DNA of 64,000 bases from an uncultured Acidobacteriota bacterium (GTDB taxonomy: Bacteria; Acidobacteriota; JAQAZP01). The DNA lies in the NCBI GenBank assembly GCA_963836075.1, contig CAWIIB010000009.1:512001-576000 (forward strand), in the 5' to 3' direction. Both the position numbers and the translations under genes were made by a program. Under the pieces are notes generated by a model. The model was not told the origin of the DNA, did not search any database, and worked only from the letters and a program-made list of their open reading frames with translations. The stretch's first letter is position 1, and each line of letters opens with the position of its first letter. Positions 56,511 to 64,000 of this stretch are shown here, one piece after another.

Positions 56511-58126
56511 CCACTACCACTAACGTTGCCGCGGCCGCAGCCGCTCCGAACTACCTCACCGCCAAAAAGGGGATCTGGTCCTGGCTGAGCACCACCGACC
56601 ACAAACGGATCGGTCTGCTCTACCTCTACAGCACGCTGACCTTCTTCGTCTTCGCCGCCGTGCTGGCCTTCCTCTTCCGCCTCGAGCTCTTCTCCCCCGG
56701 AGTGCAGTATTTCGGCAGCGACATCTACAACCGGCTGATCACGCTCCACGGGATCTCGATGATTTTCCTCTTCATCATCCCCGGCATCCCGGCCGTGTTC
56801 GGCAACTTCTTCCTGCCGATCCTCATCGGGGCCGAGGACGTCAGCTTCCCGCGGATCAACCTGCTTTCCTGGTACTGCTTCATCGCCGGGGCGCTGCTGG
56901 CGCTGGTCTCGGTGATCCTCGGCGGGGTGGACACCGGCTGGACCTTCTACGTGCCCTACAGCCTGCGCACCGAACAGAACATCTTCGTCCCGATGATGGC
57001 CGCCTTCATCCTCGGCTGGTCGTCGATCCTCACCGGCCTCAACTTCGTCACCACCGTGCACCGGCTGCGCGACGCGCGGATGAAGTGGTTCAGGATGCCG
57101 CTCTTCGTCTGGTCACTTTACGCCACCGGGTGGGTGCAGCTGCTGGCCACGCCGGTGGTGGGGATCACCCTGGTGATGGTGATGCTGGAGAAGTTCGTCG
57201 GGGTGGCGATCTTCGACCCCACCCGCGGCGGCGACCCGATCCTCTACGAGCACCTCTTCTGGATCTACTCGCACCCCGCGGTCTACATCATGATTCTGCC
57301 GGCGATGGGGATCGTCTCGGAGATCATCCCCACCTTCTCGCGCAAGACCATTTTCGGCTACAAGTTCATCGCCTACTCCTCGATGGCCATCGCCGGAATC
57401 GGATCGCTGGTCTGGGCCCACCACATGTTCACCTCGGGGATGGCCGACGTGGCGCGGGTGATCTTCTCCTTCCTCACCTTCTTCGTCGCCATACCCAGTG
57501 CGGTGAAGGTCTTCAACTGGCTGGCCACGATGTACAAGGGCTCGATCAAGCTCGAGCCGCCGATGGTCTGGGCGCTGATGTTCATCGTCCTCTTCACCAT
57601 CGGCGGTCTGACCGGCCTTTACAACGGCATGCTCTCCATCGACATCCACATCCACGACACCTCGTTCGTGGTGGCCCACTTCCACTACACCATGTTCGGC
57701 GGCACTGTGATGATCTTCTACGCCGCCCTGCTCTACTGGTGGCCCAAGATGTTCGGCCGGATGTACAATAAAAAGCTGGCCAACTTCCTTGCCGGCACCG
57801 TGTTCATCGGCTTCAACCTGACCTATTTCCCGCTGTTCATGGCCGGGATTGCCGGGATGCCGCGGCGCTACGCCGACTACCTGCCGCGCTACGAGATCTA
57901 CCACCGGCTCTCCACCATCGGCTCATGGATCATGATCAGCTCCCTGTTCATTCTGCTGATCCACCTGATCTGGGTCTCGAAGCGGGGGAAGAAGGCACCG
58001 GACAGCCCCTGGGGCGGGGCGACCCTGGAGTGGAGAACGGCCACGCCGCCGCCGACGCTCAATTTCACCGGCGAGCCGGACCTCAGCCGCTGGGCCTACG
58101 AGTACCCCGAAGAGGTGGAGCGATGA
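56507..58126 (+). CDS. ctaD: Heme-copper oxidase subunit I, type A2
   Basis: TDHKRIG, GWTFY, FWIYSHPAVY (YS motif), WAHHMF, VVAHFHY, GMPRRY. Confidence 0.95.
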   Translation: MTTTTNVAAAAAAPNYLTAKKGIWSWLSTTDHKRIGLLYLYSTLTFFVFAAVLAFLFRLELFSPGVQYFGSDIYNRLITLHGISMIFLFIIPGIPAVFGNFFLPILIGAEDVSFPRINLLSWYCFIAGALLALVSVILGGVDTGWTFYVPYSLRTEQNIFVPMMAAFILGWSSILTGLNFVTTVHRLRDARMKWFRMPLFVWSLYATGWVQLLATPVVGITLVMVMLEKFVGVAIFDPTRGGDPILYEHLFWIYSHPAVYIMILPAMGIVSEIIPTFSRKTIFGYKFIAYSSMAIAGIGSLVWAHHMFTSGMADVARVIFSFLTFFVAIPSAVKVFNWLATMYKGSIKLEPPMVWALMFIVLFTIGGLTGLYNGMLSIDIHIHDTSFVVAHFHYTMFGGTVMIFYAALLYWWPKMFGRMYNKKLANFLAGTVFIGFNLTYFPLFMAGIAGMPRRYADYLPRYEIYHRLSTIGSWIMISSLFILLIHLIWVSKRGKKAPDSPWGGATLEWRTATPPPTLNFTGEPDLSRWAYEYPEEVER

Positions 58127-58749
58127 GCCAGGGGACGGCAGCCGCCCAGCAGCATCACGAGCACTACGACCCGGAGGCGAACAGGATCGGGATGTGGCTT
58201 TTCCTCTTCACCGAGGTGCTGCTCTTCGGCGCCCTGTTCATCGCCTACGCCATGTATCTCACCCTGCACCGCTGGGATTTCATGGTCGGGTCGGCCCAGC
58301 TGGACAAGCTGATGGGTGCGGCGAACACGGTGATCCTGCTCACCAGCAGCCTGACCATGGCGCTGTCCATCGGCGCCCTGGAGCGGGGCAAAAAGATGCT
58401 GTCGCTGGTGCTGCTGGGGGTGACGCTGCTCTTCTCCTTCGGCTTCCTCGGCATCAAGTCGGTGGAGTGGAGCCACAAGTATCACCACGGCATCTGGCCC
58501 CAATCGGAAAACCTGGCCACGTTCCCCCAGGGCGAACAGGTCTTTTACGGGCTCTATTTCACCATGACCGGGCTGCACGCCCTGCACGTGATCATCGGCG
58601 CGGTGGCGATCCTCGTTGTTATGGCGCTGGTGGCCCGGGGGAAGGTGCACCAGGGGCGCCCCGACCTGTTGGTGAATACCGGGCTCTACTGGCACCTGGT
58701 GGATCTGGTCTGGATTTTCCTCTTTCCGTTGTTCTATCTTATCCATTGA
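58123..58749 (+). CDS. ctaE: Cytochrome c oxidase subunit III
   Basis: GMWLFLFTEVLLF, TGLHALHV, YWHLVDLVW. Confidence 0.93.
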   Translation: MSQGTAAAQQHHEHYDPEANRIGMWLFLFTEVLLFGALFIAYAMYLTLHRWDFMVGSAQLDKLMGAANTVILLTSSLTMALSIGALERGKKMLSLVLLGVTLLFSFGFLGIKSVEWSHKYHHGIWPQSENLATFPQGEQVFYGLYFTMTGLHALHVIIGAVAILVVMALVARGKVHQGRPDLLVNTGLYWHLVDLVWIFLFPLFYLIH

Positions 58750-58758
58750 GGTTCAAGC

Positions 58759-59046
58759 ATGAGCGACCATACAGACCATCAGATCGTGCCCTACCGGGTC
58801 TACCTCATCGTCTGGCTGGGCCTGCTGGCCCTGACCGTGGTCACGGTGGCCGTCTCCTATGTCGACATGCGCAACGTGGCGGTCCTCACCGCGGTGCTCA
58901 TCGCCACGGTGAAGAGCTCGCTGGTACTGCTTTACTTCATGGAAATCAGGTTCGGCAAGCCCCTCTACGCGATCATGATTCTCGCGGTGCTGGGGACCTA
59001 CGCCATTTTCATCGGATTGACATTTGCAGACTATGGATACCGTTAA
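58759..59046 (+). CDS. ctaF: Cytochrome c oxidase subunit IV
   Basis: Three TMs, IATVKSSLVLLYFME. Confidence 0.85.
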   Translation: MSDHTDHQIVPYRVYLIVWLGLLALTVVTVAVSYVDMRNVAVLTAVLIATVKSSLVLLYFMEIRFGKPLYAIMILAVLGTYAIFIGLTFADYGYR

Positions 59047-60214
59047 TCAGTTCACTCAGCCGCTCTCGGACATCACCCGCGAGGTGGACCTGGCCTTCAA
59101 CATGATGGGCTGGATCTCGCTCTTCCTGCTGCTGGGCATCACCCTGGCCATGGTCTGGTTCGTGTTCCGCTACAGCCGCGGCCGGGCAAAAACAACCACC
59201 CAGATCGAGGGCCATTTCTGGCTCGAGGTGACCTGGATCGTCCTGCCGGTGATCCTGGTCACCTGGATGTTCTGGGTCGGCTACAAAGGGTTCCTGCTCA
59301 TCCGGGAGGTCCCGGAAGGAGCGATGGTGGTCAAGGTCACCGGCCAGCAGTGGTCCTGGTCCTTCTACTACCCCGAGGAAGGGATCAGTACCACCGAAAT
59401 GGTGGTCCCGGTGAACACGCCGGTGAAGGCCGAGATCACCGCACCGCCCGACGACGTGCTGCACAGCTTCTTCATCCCCGACTTCCGGGTCAAGGAGGAC
59501 GCGGTGCCGGGCAAGGAGACCTACCTCTGGTTCGAGTCGAACCGGGTGGGAGACTTCAACATCTTCTGCGCCGAATACTGCGGCAAGGACCACTCCCGGA
59601 TGATCTCCATGCTCCACGTGGTCTCGGAAGAGGACTACCGCAAGTGGATCAAGGCCCAGGAGGCGAAGAAGTACAAACCGCTGGAATACGAGGGGCTGGT
59701 GAATGCGGACCACCCGGCCTTCGGTCCCGACGACCTGAACATCGACGCCGCGGCGCTCTACCGCAACTACTGCGCCTCGTGCCACGGGGCGGCTGGTGAC
59801 GGTTCGGGCCTGCCCGGGGTGGCGCGGGATTTCAACGACCTGCCCAAGTGGAAGAAGAGCAGCAAGGTCACCGACATCTTCCGCACCCTCACCGAGGGGA
59901 TTCCGGGAACCCAGATGCGGGCCTTTCCCAACTTCGCGCCCTGGGAGAAAGTGGGCCTGGCCCACCAGGTGCGCTCCTTCATCCGCGAGGGCGCCGAGCC
60001 GATCACCGAAGAGGACTACGCCGCCCTGGTGGAGCAGTACGAGCTGGACAAGATGCAGGGCCCGCGGGAGACCATCCCGGTGGACCGGGCCATGGAGCTG
60101 CTCACCCAGGAAGCCGCGACAAGGTCAGCTGCGCCCGCAGAAGAACCCCGACCTGAAGAGCCGCCGGTGACGGAAGAACTCGCACCACCGCACTCGGACG
60201 AACCGAATCCATAA
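59033..60214 (+). CDS. ctaC: Cytochrome c oxidase subunit II with fused cytochrome c (caa3-type)
   Basis: LEVTWIVLP, QWSW, DVLHSF, CuA CAEYCGKDHSRM, CASCH. Confidence 0.93.
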   Translation: MDTVNQFTQPLSDITREVDLAFNMMGWISLFLLLGITLAMVWFVFRYSRGRAKTTTQIEGHFWLEVTWIVLPVILVTWMFWVGYKGFLLIREVPEGAMVVKVTGQQWSWSFYYPEEGISTTEMVVPVNTPVKAEITAPPDDVLHSFFIPDFRVKEDAVPGKETYLWFESNRVGDFNIFCAEYCGKDHSRMISMLHVVSEEDYRKWIKAQEAKKYKPLEYEGLVNADHPAFGPDDLNIDAAALYRNYCASCHGAAGDGSGLPGVARDFNDLPKWKKSSKVTDIFRTLTEGIPGTQMRAFPNFAPWEKVGLAHQVRSFIREGAEPITEEDYAALVEQYELDKMQGPRETIPVDRAMELLTQEAATRSAAPAEEPRPEEPPVTEELAPPHSDEPNP

Positions 60215-60412
60215 GCCAGGTCCTTATCGTGCCATTGACGCACCGCTTACAGGTGTGTTCGCAGTCCGTTGTGTACAGTCTGGGGCGACCATGGTCATTT
60301 TTGACTGACATTTCCAGCAAAATACTTTCTTTCCAAGCAAGTAGACCGGTGGCGATACTCCTAATTCATCATCATCCATTTTGTTACTACCTCTTAGCAC
60401 GAACTGAGAACC

Positions 60413-61735
60413 CTACAGCTCATCCAGCGGGCTGCGTGCGTCCGGTGCCATCGCCTGCAATACATGGGTGTAGAGCATGGTTGTTTCCACGCTTTTGTGC
60501 CCGAGCAGATCTTGCACCCGACGGATGTCCGTGCCCTTCATCAGAAGCGCCGTGGCAAAGCTGTGTCTCAATGAATGACAACCAGCCGGCTTGGCAATCC
60601 CCGACCGCCGCACCGCCTCCTTCATCGCCCTCTGCACCGTTGCAGTGGCCATATGCCAACGCCGAATCACGCCATCATCACCCACGTTCAGCTTGGCCGA
60701 TGGGAACACAAACTGCCAGCCCCATTCACGCCCCGCATTGGCGTATTTCCGCTTTAGGGCATCCGGCAACGGCGCCTCACCGGCACCAGCCGCCAAGTCA
60801 CGCACGTGCAGGTCCTTCACCTTGGCCAGGTGGTCCTTCAGGCCCTGAACCAACCGCTCCGGTAAAAAGGTAACACGGTCTTTGTCCCCCTTGCTCACCC
60901 GCACCATAATCGATCCGGATGCGAAGTCGATTTCCTTCACCCGTAACTGCACCAGTTCGCTCACCCGCAACCCGCTGCCATAAACCAACTCGAGCATGAG
61001 CCGGTATACCCCCCGAAGTTCATTGAAAACAGCACGCGCCTCTTCCGGCATCAGCACCACCGGCAATCGACGCCCCCGCCGAGCTCGCACTGTTGCGCCC
61101 ATGTCACCCAGATCTTTCATCAGCACATGGCGGAACAAAAACAGCAGTGCATTGAAAGCCTGATTCTGGGTGGATGATGCCACGTTGCGCTGAACAGCTA
61201 GATAGCTGAGATACGACCTCACATCATCCGTTGTCGGTGCAACCCTGGTTGTCCCGTCCACGTAAGCGAGAAATCGCTGAGCCCAACCCAGATAGCTGCG
61301 CTCAGTACGATTTGCATAGCGACGCAACCTCATCAGCTGCCGCATCTCCACCAGCAGCTGCTTTGCGTTCAAGGCCCCAGTATTTCCACATTCACCACCT
61401 ACACCTGATTCCCCGCTCGCCGCACTCGAACCTGTGGAGCTGCCGGAACCATGTACATCAGTTGCCACCCCCGTAACCTGCTGTTTACGATACTGACCAC
61501 AGAAGAGTGCCACCGCATCGGCTGCTTGTCGCAGTTGCCAGCCCTGGGTCCTCCCCTCCCCCAGGTCCTCCAGGAAAACCAGCAACGTGTCCTGCCAGAC
61601 CTCAATCTGCCTGCTTGACTGCAACCGCAGGAACCGCTCCACCCACCCCACGAAAAACTGTATTTTGTGATCGGAAGTCATCCGCTTCTCACGCAGCCAC
61701 ACCGCGTATGCTTCCAACTCGCTGTTCATCCCCAC
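60413..61735 (-). CDS. intI: Integron integrase with N-terminal extension
   Basis: STQNQAFNAL, GLRVSE, KGDKDR, integron-specific patch LPDALKRKY..WGWQFVFPS..RRWH, HSLRHSFAT, LLGH, TMLYTH. Confidence 0.93.
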   Translation of the reverse strand: MGMNSELEAYAVWLREKRMTSDHKIQFFVGWVERFLRLQSSRQIEVWQDTLLVFLEDLGEGRTQGWQLRQAADAVALFCGQYRKQQVTGVATDVHGSGSSTGSSAASGESGVGGECGNTGALNAKQLLVEMRQLMRLRRYANRTERSYLGWAQRFLAYVDGTTRVAPTTDDVRSYLSYLAVQRNVASSTQNQAFNALLFLFRHVLMKDLGDMGATVRARRGRRLPVVLMPEEARAVFNELRGVYRLMLELVYGSGLRVSELVQLRVKEIDFASGSIMVRVSKGDKDRVTFLPERLVQGLKDHLAKVKDLHVRDLAAGAGEAPLPDALKRKYANAGREWGWQFVFPSAKLNVGDDGVIRRWHMATATVQRAMKEAVRRSGIAKPAGCHSLRHSFATALLMKGTDIRRVQDLLGHKSVETTMLYTHVLQAMAPDARSPLDEL

Positions 61736-61812
61736 CCAGCCTTCTGTATCAATCTGATTACTTGCAGTTTACACGTATCGCCAAACACAATACCCGACTA
61801 TGCAACCAGTCT

Positions 61813-61919
61813 AATATCCAGGTAATACCTGCCAATCACGACCCTGCCAACCAACCTGCGAATATCCAGCCTCCTGGATATCAAACTATCCTCCTATCCG
61901 AGTAATGGCCCGGTTATAC
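61813..61919 (+). other. Putative attI region
   Basis: Upstream of intI; direct repeats AATATCCAG and CCTGCCAA, then TATCCGAGTAATGGCCCG-GTTATAC core at 61913-61919. Confidence 0.5.
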
Positions 61920-62177
61920 CAATCTATTGCAGCCACATTGCCGATCTCTTGACTATCGGCCCACCCGTGTTTACCATATGACACAATGACTTGTACTCAT
62001 TCGGGTTCCGACCTTGACCTGCAACACTATGAAAAGAAAGCAATATGCGTGCCCGAATTCCCTTTTTTTGTGTATAGTCAGATATAGAATTGTTGAACTT
62101 AGCCGCTTCGCGGGGAATAAATCTTGCATAGACAGATAGTTGCGTTGATCGTGGTCCCATACCTACCGTGGTGATAT

Positions 62178-63338
62178 ATGGAAGGCAGGATTCAAGCGAT
62201 ATTCCGTCAGCACTTCGATGCGTATGCCTCGGAACATCGTCTTCCCCTACATGCCCATAAAGCCGCCCGTTCAATCATCAGCTGCCGCACCGAAGCGATG
62301 GGCGGGCACGTGATGCGCTGCCCCGCCGGCCACCTCGAGAAGATCTCATACAACTCCTGCAAGCACCGTTCCTGCCCCCAGTGCTCGAGCCTGCCCGCGG
62401 AACGCTGGCTCGAGAACCAGAAGGCGCAGTTGCTGGCCACCAATCACTTCCACGTGATCTTCACCATGCCCGATGGTCTGAACGACCTCTGGCGATGGAA
62501 CAGGAAGTTGATGGCCGACCTGCTGTTCAAGGCTTCCCGCGACACCCTCTTCGAGCTGCTCGGCGATGAACGCTATCTCGGCGCAAAGCCGGGTCTGATG
62601 AGTTCCCTCCACACCTGGGGCCGAACACTGGTCCTGCACCCGCACCTGCACTGCCTGGTCACTGGTGGCGGTCTGGATGACGAAGGCAACTGGCGACAAG
62701 CCAGGCAGGGCTACCTTCTCCCAGCCCGCCTGGTGAGCGCCCTTTACAAGGGCAAGATGATCGCCTTCATCAGCAAGACGTTCAACGAGGGTAAGCTCCG
62801 GCTACCCGCCGGATCACGGCCCAAGGACCTGTTCCGCCTGCTGGCCCGGCTCAAGAAGAAGAAGTGGAACGTCCGCCTGCAGAGTAAATACGCACACGGC
62901 AACGGCGTGACCACCTATCTCGCCCGATACGTCAAGGGCGGCCCGATCTCCAACCGTCGCGTGATCCGTGTCGATGGACACCACGTGTGGTTCCGCTACA
63001 CGGACCACCGCGACGGCCGCAACAAGACGATGAAGCTCACGCATCGCGAGTTCTTTAATCGGCTTCTGCAGCACGTACCTGTCCCCTACAGCCACACCGT
63101 GAGGTATTACGGGCTTTACCACTCGCACAACATCGATTCACTGAATCGCTGTCGATCGATTATGGGCCAGGCACCGGTGGAAAAACCGGAGCTGATGGAC
63201 TGGTCAGCCTACTGTGAGAAGATCGGTTTGGCCGACCAGGTGACGTGCCCGGTCTGCGGACGGCGGATCATCTACGCCGGCCCCTTGAAACGAGGCAAAC
63301 CACCGCCGGAGGGAGAGCGCTATGACCAAGCAGCGTAA
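62178..63338 (+). mobile_element. IS91-family rolling-circle (HUH/Y2) transposase
   Basis: Zn motif CRT..GGH..C..YNSCKHRSCPQC, HTWG..LHPHLH, YLARY, VRYYG, CPVCG. Confidence 0.92.
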
Positions 63339-63557
63339 TCACAACCTCTTCTCTGCAGCCTCATTCAACCAGGGGGAAGTGCGTCCACGGGCAACAGCCT
63401 CGATCAGATGGTGTATACCTCAGTTTCCAAAGTGTTTAGGCCGGTTAACAGTAGTTGCATTTTACGTTTTCGGAATAGACGATCGCATACGACCAGATTC
63501 ATTACTCGATGGGTGTGTGAAGAGGTGAAAACTCCATAAGGTCGAATAAAGGGGCCT

Positions 63558-63654
63558 GTTCAACCAGTAGATTGAGTTGACCGCCGACCTGTCACGTCAA
63601 TTGCGGGGCAACTGTCGCGCCAGGACGGCTCGCAACTCATCTAAGACGTTCTGC
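63558..63654 (+). other. Integron attC site (97 bp)
   Basis: R'' GTTCAAC, L'' ATTGAGTTG pairing with L' CAACTCAT with one extra base, internal imperfect stem, R' GTTCTGC. Confidence 0.82.
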
Positions 63655-63673
63655 GAAAGATCGAAGGTAAGCA

Positions 63674-64000
63674 ATGTCGTTAAAGGCCAATAAATTGCTC
63701 GTACGACGCTTATATGAAGAAGCATTCAACACCGGAAATGTTGAATTGATCGAGAGCCTTGTCTCTCCCGAATACACAGAAGTTCATGATGGGAAAAGGC
63801 ATGTCATTGGCATAGAGGGCGCTAAAGCACACGCGGTTGGTGTTCGTCAGACTTATCCGGATCTTCATATCTCAATCGAACAACAAATTGCTGAAGGCGA
63901 GTGGGTCGTCTCCTGTATTACAGCAACAGGAACACATAAAGGTTCCTGGCTGGGTATCAAGCCGACTGGCAAGTCTGTTACTTTCACTGGTGTCAATGTT
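63674..64000 (+). CDS. SnoaL-like ester cyclase, integron cassette gene, truncated by window end
   Basis: Hand translation MSLKANKLLVRRLYEEAFNTGN...YPDLHISIEQQIAEGEWV...GTHKGSWLGIKPTGKSV; low GC; starts 20 bp after attC. Confidence 0.87.
   Translation, partial: MSLKANKLLVRRLYEEAFNTGNVELIESLVSPEYTEVHDGKRHVIGIEGAKAHAVGVRQTYPDLHISIEQQIAEGEWVVSCITATGTHKGSWLGIKPTGKSVTFTGVNV

Follow-up and report, generated by a model that had tools for sequence, protein, structure and literature searches.

Integrons and rolling-circle elements of the IS91 and ISCR (insertion sequence common region) types are two of the main gene-capture systems of bacteria and have so far been treated as neighbours. As outlined in PMC13181058, a canonical IS91-family insertion sequence (IS) has a left end, terIS, with one palindrome, and a right end, oriIS, with one or two; its target, GTTC or CTTG with T at position 2, abuts oriIS, and its active intermediate is a bottom-strand single-stranded circle. 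PMC6218425 associates ISCR1, a rolling-circle element resembling IS91, with class 1 integrons, and pairs of an IS91 transposase and XerD are reported to adjoin resistance genes (PMC11194056). The account of the clinical integron In1547 names 'a transposase (ISVsa10) insertion downstream of aadA2', not a cassette, and gives In1690, which is devoid of this unit, as the empty form (PMC11049973). Here we analyze a stretch of 64,000 nucleotides (nt) from an uncultured Acidobacteriota bacterium, hereafter called the window, in which a large chromosomal integron holds, in its first slot, an intact IS91-type transposase as a true cassette with its own attC recombination site. Relatives of this transposase unit are also packaged as cassettes in other bacteria, including in a clinical resistance integron. 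A literature search, supplements excluded, returned no description of IS91-type cassettes as a class; two papers touch on such elements, only in passing, and the clade that carries the cassette is coherent and apparently widespread.

The mobile unit is an IS91-family gene cassette of 1556 bp (62093–63648, plus strand), as delimited by blastn and by its G/TT junctions, where the slash marks the crossover. A metagenome scan retrieved four close copies of the transposase, with 94, 86, 86, and 87% amino acid identity, and DNA homology to all four begins at 62091 or 62092, the G of G/TTGAAC. The right limit of homology falls at 63650–63656, in the R' box of the attC, in the two copies that reach it: L083 covers 62092–63656 and L084 covers 62091–63650. 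The left context of the unit is the attI site in the window, an attC in L083, and another sequence in L084 to L086. Contigs from runs X2 and X3 carry the unit, matched at at least 99%, with two further different sequences after 63650, so that the right flanks differ among the window, L083, L084, X2, and X3. In L083, the unit lies mid-array, directly after an attC of the window's family 1 and before G/TTGGGC, and the attC of the cassette that follows has the R'' box GCCCAAC, the exact reverse complement of the R' box. In L084, the unit is followed by G/TTAAGT and the next attC has the R'' box ACTTAAC, again the exact reverse complement. An empty allele is provided by the same-genus genome G011, which matches the intI-attI region at 94% up to window position 62093 and then continues with a different cassette, apparently an antitoxin-PIN pair; comparison of the filled and empty sites reveals no target-site duplication. 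Since the homology of the unit and that of G011 both break at G/TT, the cassette is assigned to 62093–63648. Comparison with the metagenome copies, the same-genus genome, the contigs from other runs, and an Endozoicomonas genome that has four copies fixes both ends at G/TT. The initial annotation, made from the sequence alone, had recognized a unit running from the transposase to an attC and had proposed looking for empty alleles, one of which G011 supplies at the same attI point; its limits of 61913–63654 have to be corrected, because the putative attI that it placed at 61913 was off by 180 bases from the crossover 62092/62093 given by the homology breaks. As a side observation, the attI junction of G011 (L117, G011:C9:1-3170, at about 2262) reads G-T-AGCCC, one T short of GTTAGCCC, and the G011 intI matches codons 1–309 only and then runs into unrelated sequence; the G011 integrase is probably truncated.

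The attC of the unit occupies 63558–63654 (plus strand, 97 nt), with the crossover after G 63648. Its R'' box, GTTCAAC (63558–63564), is followed by a 5-nt spacer and by the L'' box, GATTGAG (63570–63576), which has one extra base relative to L'; on the other side of the hairpin, the L' box, CTCATC (63636–63641), is followed by a 6-nt spacer and by the R' box, GTTCTGC (63648–63654). The well-formed attC and the exact complementarity of its R'' box with the cassette start GTTGAAC (62092–62098) had both been proposed beforehand, and both hold: the two boxes pair at 7/7 positions, in line with a rule checked at six junctions of the array, where each R'' box is reverse-complementary to the heptamer formed by G and the six opening bases of the cassette to which the attC belongs. 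An in-house covariance model, R1, trained on 17 attCs from elsewhere in the array with the hairpin site left out, matches 63558–63654 over the full length with 37 bits and an E-value of 1e-7, which is the sole match below E 0.4 in the window. The attC copies of L083 and L084 score 39.7 and 44.8 bits, respectively. A score of 36.7 bits is reached by one of the ordinary short attCs of the array (L002, 5124–5220), whose central motif recurs in the attC of the unit. Between the window and L084 the stem shows a compensatory change, GAG:CTC to AAG:CTT, and the attC (0.94 and 0.82) matches the coding sequence (0.93 and 0.82) in its degree of conservation. No R1 match was obtained on the recombinase-carrying relatives L023, L024, L026, and L081, on L006, or on the hairpins found 3' of the transposase in L005/L132, L008/L123, and L120; since R1 is lineage-specific, these nulls are not evidence against an attC-like fold. 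A search of 58000–64000 against Rfam with E-values up to 1 gave no match either; Rfam appears to hold no attC family. The unit is distinct from IS1111-attC elements and group IIC-attC introns in that its transposase is of the HUH type, Rfam finds nothing in it, and its attC is uninterrupted.

The transposase gene (62178–63338, plus strand), already taken for intact and for IS91-type on the cassette strand, encodes 386 residues and matches NF033538 with 387 bits (cut-off 125) as well as PF14319 and PF04986. The protein has the Y2/HUH architecture with an N-terminal zinc-binding domain that is characteristic of IS91, and His154, His156, His158, Tyr247, and Tyr251 are invariant in 25 aligned relatives. 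With ratios of nonsynonymous to synonymous substitutions (dN/dS) of 0.11–0.13 against L083, L084, and L085, the gene is, as judged from its codons, under purifying selection. The left terminus (left inverted repeat, terIS-like; 62093–62113, plus strand) consists of TTGAAC, four bases, and the palindrome CCGCTTCGCGG; these 21 nt do not vary among the window, L083, and L084, while the remaining leader drifts, and near-identical left termini are present in recombinase-carrying relatives such as L023, L024, and L026. The right end carries a subterminal motif, GTGAAAACTCCATAAGGTCG (63526–63545, plus strand), which is conserved in L083 and L084 and is a candidate oriIS recognition sequence. Indeed, the stretch near 63525 that had been labeled oriIS-like contains the motif CCATA[AG], located 27–57 nt before the right repeat in 31/35 related elements. 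The unit thus has the two unlike ends of an IS91-type element, a palindrome on the left and, on the right, the CCATA motif, the remnant of a repeat, and a hairpin; the right repeat of the window copy has decayed in its inner part. TTGAAC is at once the left terminus and the TTRRRY start of the cassette, and GTTCAAC is both the outer end of the IS right repeat and the R'' box, a double role of the right-hand bases that had been noted from the outset. The IS termini and the cassette signals are therefore the same bases. The flanks that follow the unit read TTCT, TTGG, TTAA, and TTAG, and not the GTTC or CTTG that IS91 targets next to oriIS; GTTC is present only inside the unit, at the R'' box. 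A 68-residue open reading frame (63322–63528, plus strand) overlaps the 3' end of the transposase gene and the right-end noncoding region; it matches no known family and is unlikely to be a gene.

In a quick maximum-likelihood tree of 76 rows, rooted at the midpoint, ten rows (the window, L083, L084, L085, L004 to L006, L008, L120, and L121) lie on one side of a branch with a Shimodaira–Hasegawa-like approximate likelihood ratio test (SH-aLRT) value of 100. On the other side, 65 of the 66 rows have an upstream recombinase gene, the exception, L076, lying on a contig that breaks off immediately 5' of the transposase. Wherever the junctions of the recombinase-less clade could be read, G/TT stands on both sides, at an attI or attC crossover. 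The Endozoicomonas genome (G007; L005/L132) contains four copies, 99.4–99.7% identical, which all end with AAGCG/TT and have four different right flanks; three of them are preceded by about 247 nt, attI-like, homologous to the sequence just upstream of an intI of that genome. The fourth full copy starts three bases short (...CTGATG/TACGCG), a rearranged junction, and upstream of it (L132 1241–1424, G007:C98) there is a duplicate of the initial 75 nt of the unit with an attC behind it. L008 starts with G/TTGGAC after an attC and continues downstream with GTCCAAC, a hairpin, and G/TTAGAT; L121 starts with G/TTGAAC after an attC-like hairpin, and L006 with G/TTGAAC and the palindrome. In L121 (4230, on a Thiolapillus plasmid) and in L004 (4215), the transposase frame stops directly before ...ATCG/TT, and the attC-like end seemingly lies within the reading frame. 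L120 is the class 1 integron In1547 carried by IncN plasmids, with the gene order intI1, aac(6')-Ib, blaIMP-6, aadA2, IS91 transposase, qacEdelta1; its unit extends from G/TTGAAC after the aadA2 attC to G/TTAGAT at the 3'-conserved segment (3'-CS) and is found once in each of 11 IncN plasmid records. The first slot is a recurrent placement, observed in the window, in the L084 to L086 lineage, and in three Endozoicomonas copies. Among the best 120 protein matches, the longest contig is at most 10 kb in 109, and closer homologues, at 49–85% protein identity, exist among the roughly 3600 from metagenomes; packaging as a cassette would explain why such transposases are common on short contigs but rare in assembled genomes.

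A genome scan disclosed a wider family of 79 loci with at most 46% identity to the window transposase (the best of the kept genome loci having 46%). The transposase is near full-length in 70 of these loci, and 65 of the 70 carry a tyrosine recombinase gene directly upstream on the same strand. For seven recombinases tested, the integron integrase model TIGR02249 was the top model in four and second to an archaeal XerA model in three; the scores, 173–228 bits, are below the cut-off, and two stretches are matched with the middle of the model left out, which we take to be the position of the IntI-specific insert. In a Solibacteraceae genome, a 2599-bp unit that occurs in tandem copies starts with TTGAACTAAACCGCTTCGCGG; its right end consists of GTTCAAC and, after a 5-nt spacer, a long hairpin with a short tail. 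A Vicinamibacterales genome (G004) has 16 copies with fixed ends, TTGGAC on the left and GTCCAAT, a hairpin, and GCTCTGCA on the right. Six of these copies (L097, L100, L104, L105, L106, and L109) lie inside a palindromic repeat, with flanks reading ...GGTCATACTGATCA / GTATGACCAGC..., and the recombinase-carrying IS of G004 may thus prefer hairpin-forming targets, as this arrangement suggests. Across the family, the terminal hexamers covary: TTGGAC with GTCCAA, TTGAAC with GTTCAA, TTGTAC with GTACAA, TTGCAC with GTGCAA, and GTGAAC with GTTCAC. Because of this covariation, GTTGAAC and GTTCAAC of the window are identified as the terminal repeats of the family, which double as R' and R''.

The integron that houses the unit is a complete chromosomal one, with an intI above the family cut-off, an attI, and an array of attCs on one strand. 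As first annotated, intI is on the minus strand (60413–61735); it encodes 440 residues, of which 128–440 match TIGR02249 with 381.5 bits (cut-off 265). An N-terminal extension of about 120 residues (window 61375–61735, minus strand) precedes the IntI core and found no match in Pfam. Over its codons 1–120, the comparison with the congener G011 gives 16 nucleotide and 4 amino acid changes and a dN/dS of about 0.10, and because of this low ratio the extension is probably translated. The attI region spans 61736–62092, with the crossover after G 62092. A promoter scan of 61500–63700 returned two sites against 1.1 expected, so that a weak promoter-like site facing the cassettes (61949–61977) is not above chance. 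Downstream in the source genome, the attC model gives 34 plus-strand matches spanning about 28 kb, and the array, with a GC content of about 0.41–0.55 against 0.64 genome-wide, is AT-richer. It comprises at least 34 attCs (L002 3558–20000 and L003 1–10073, genome C9 about 574092–602073); repeat finding distinguishes two main attC families, of about 116 nt and 147 nt, next to short 97-nt forms, with the common core GTCACG...TTGC...GCAAC...CGCGCC. The gene after the unit belongs, as expected, to a normal cassette: this cassette starts at 63649 (to 64000 in the window, plus strand) and encodes a SnoaL-like protein (PF07366; 143 residues in the genome). The attC of the cassette, situated outside the window, has the R'' box GCAGAAC, complementary to the cassette start G/TTCTGC, and on a contig from run X1 the start of this second cassette is preceded by a different attC. 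A second true intI (L085 2693–3736, L086 138–1181; TIGR02249, 417 bits), 50% identical to that of the window, lies upstream of the IS91 cassette but has the orientation of the cassettes; attC family 1 of the window recurs in the array behind it, and in L086 a 1422-bp IS3-type (rve) element separates this intI from the IS91 cassette.

By its structure and placements, the unit reads as a cassette, and by its termini and gene as an IS. We consider that 62093–63648 is a genuine cassette, mobilized by IntI, that carries a complete IS91-family IS of a distinct lineage, and put the probability of this reading at about 0.7. IntI would act on the folded bottom strand to excise the unit and to insert it, in most cases at attI; this role is deduced from the readable junctions, which show G/TT on both sides, and from the recurrence of the first slot, which fits recombination of attC with attI. 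Such a preference for attI would explain why the unit is repeatedly found in that position. The Y2/HUH transposase may, less firmly, still nick the retained IS ends and make single-stranded circles by rolling-circle replication, and these circular copies, in which the terminal repeats would pair at 7/7 positions, would be ready substrates for IntI. Contigs from four sequencing runs showed no circle or excision joints, although contigs are not suited to demonstrating their absence. Since the sister elements carry their own IntI/Xer-like recombinase, the recombinase-less lineage probably relies on the host integron integrase instead. Several points weigh against this reading. The 37 bits of the hairpin are modest, given that true attCs read on the wrong strand reach 21–36 bits, and the R1 model is specific to one lineage. 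The base of the hairpin, ATCTAAG(A)CG/TT, is kept between the window and In1547 despite only 38% protein identity, which suggests that the hairpin was inherited with the IS and not taken from the host. Self-mobility at /TT sites exists in the wider family, as recombinase-carrying relatives insert outside integrons: the 16 copies of G004 occupy non-integron sites, and eight of their right flanks begin with TT. The tree was a quick one, with several long branches and no canonical outgroup (IS91, IS801, IS1294, and ISCR being absent), the unit is single-copy in its own genome, and the enzyme that would move it is inferred from junctions only.

Part of this evidence would also fit an IS that targets attC or attI, whose own Y2/HUH transposase inserts the unit at G/TT, with the hairpin as the outer oriIS palindrome and the likeness to a cassette due to mimicry or convergence. 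Two features presented in PMC13181058 agree with such a mechanism: the canonical oriIS has one or two subterminal palindromes and abuts a target tetranucleotide whose second base is T, and the single-stranded circle of the bottom strand is the active intermediate. The transposase, the left terminus, and the CCATA motif are all conserved, the tail beside the crossover is conserved within the IS clade, and the recombinase-carrying relatives keep hairpin and tail in 16/16 copies outside integrons. However, all readable placements of the recombinase-less elements are at attI or attC crossovers with G on both sides, the apex of the hairpin has the motif of the host array attCs and scores on their model, and the first-slot bias is already accounted for by insertion through IntI, attC with attI; we therefore regard a self-targeting IS as unlikely. 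Far less probable still is an ordinary IS91-type insertion into a pre-existing cassette at the GTTC of an unrelated R'' box, the match with the cassette start being a coincidence. IS91-family elements insert beside GTTC or CTTG according to PMC13181058, and the R'' box begins with GTTC, precisely where the IS-type right repeat ends; yet the attC is co-inherited in all copies that reach it (L083, L084, the contigs from other runs, the four Endozoicomonas copies, and In1547), the left terminus is itself the cassette start, with no residual cassette content between the crossover and the terminus, and TTGAAC and GTTCAA are intrinsic terminal repeats that covary across the family. The suggestion of the initial annotation that an element abuts a foreign attC with its 3' end finds no support in that form, as the attC travels with the transposase. 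Its other suggestion, that the transposase is packaged as a cassette that IntI can mobilize, agrees with a conserved unit that includes the attC and is bounded by G/TT in every context found, with the empty attI of G011, and with the R1 match of the hairpin. Its overall interpretation is thus supported in part, for the cassette and not for the targeting of foreign attCs.

The transposase could, instead, have been domesticated and move nothing, serving the integron as an accessory, for instance by producing single-stranded DNA that stimulates cassette recombination. Purifying selection, the degraded inner part of the right repeat in the window copy, and the recurrent first slot, where expression would be highest, are consistent with such a role. 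Nevertheless, the left terminus and the CCATA motif are conserved as for an active IS, the unit itself is mobile between arrays, and four near-identical copies in one genome better fit a selfish element, which makes domestication improbable. The arrangement is seen in chromosomal integrons from the environment and again in a class 1 integron from the clinic, and it offers a concrete case, open to experiment, in which two enzymes of single-stranded DNA have a substrate in common; read-through of rolling-circle replication is suggested as a route for moving the integron platform or cassettes. More speculatively, and with the odds against it, the whole IS91 subgroup might be a two-enzyme element, in which the HUH enzyme peels off single-stranded circles and a tyrosine recombinase, either its own IntI/Xer-like enzyme or, for the recombinase-less clade, the host IntI, pastes them at N/TT. 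The circular junction would then fold in an attC-like manner, with the terminal repeats as R box and the hairpin as L box and variable stem. The recombinase-less clade would in that case be an integron parasite that could drag along attI-intI or upstream cassettes whenever rolling-circle replication failed to terminate at the left end, and the association of an IntI-like recombinase with hairpin-ended single-stranded elements may bear on the origin of integron recombination.

Among known systems, ISCR1 lies beyond the 3'-CS and is not known to be bounded by G/TT or to have an attC. IS1111-attC elements and group IIC-attC introns are, like the window unit, residents of integron arrays that use attC sites, but they interrupt the attC and employ a DDE transposase or a ribozyme with a reverse transcriptase, whereas in the window unit the attC is intact and part of the unit. 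Canonical IS91, IS801, and IS1294 share with it the Y2/HUH transposase with a zinc-binding N-terminal domain, the left terIS, and the right oriIS; they differ by their target, GTTC or CTTG, in place of the four flanks beginning with TT listed above (TTCT, TTGG, TTAA, and TTAG), have no known tie to attC, and are absent from the tree. The recombinase-carrying IS91 subgroup is closer. Its left end has TTGRAC, three to five bases, and a palindrome; on the right, the CCATA motif precedes a GTYCAA repeat, which is followed by a long hairpin with a short tail. The subgroup makes no target duplication, and tandem copies occur. Unlike the window unit, it carries its own IntI/Xer-like recombinase, occupies non-integron sites, and has A instead of G as the last base of the unit. 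ISShvi3 of a Shewanella chromosomal integron can be likened to the unit on the basis of a one-sentence description, which gives no boundaries, relatives, or mechanism. The 'ISVsa10' unit of In1547 differs from the window unit by a protein identity of only 38%, by its location on a clinical plasmid (blaIMP-6, Japan), and by its placement in the fourth slot. The two share one side of the tree, however, and the In1547 unit starts in the same way with G/TTGAAC and the palindrome, and ends on the right, as in the window, with GTTCAAC, a 5-nt spacer, a hairpin with the extra L'' base, and ATCTAAGCG/TTAGAT.

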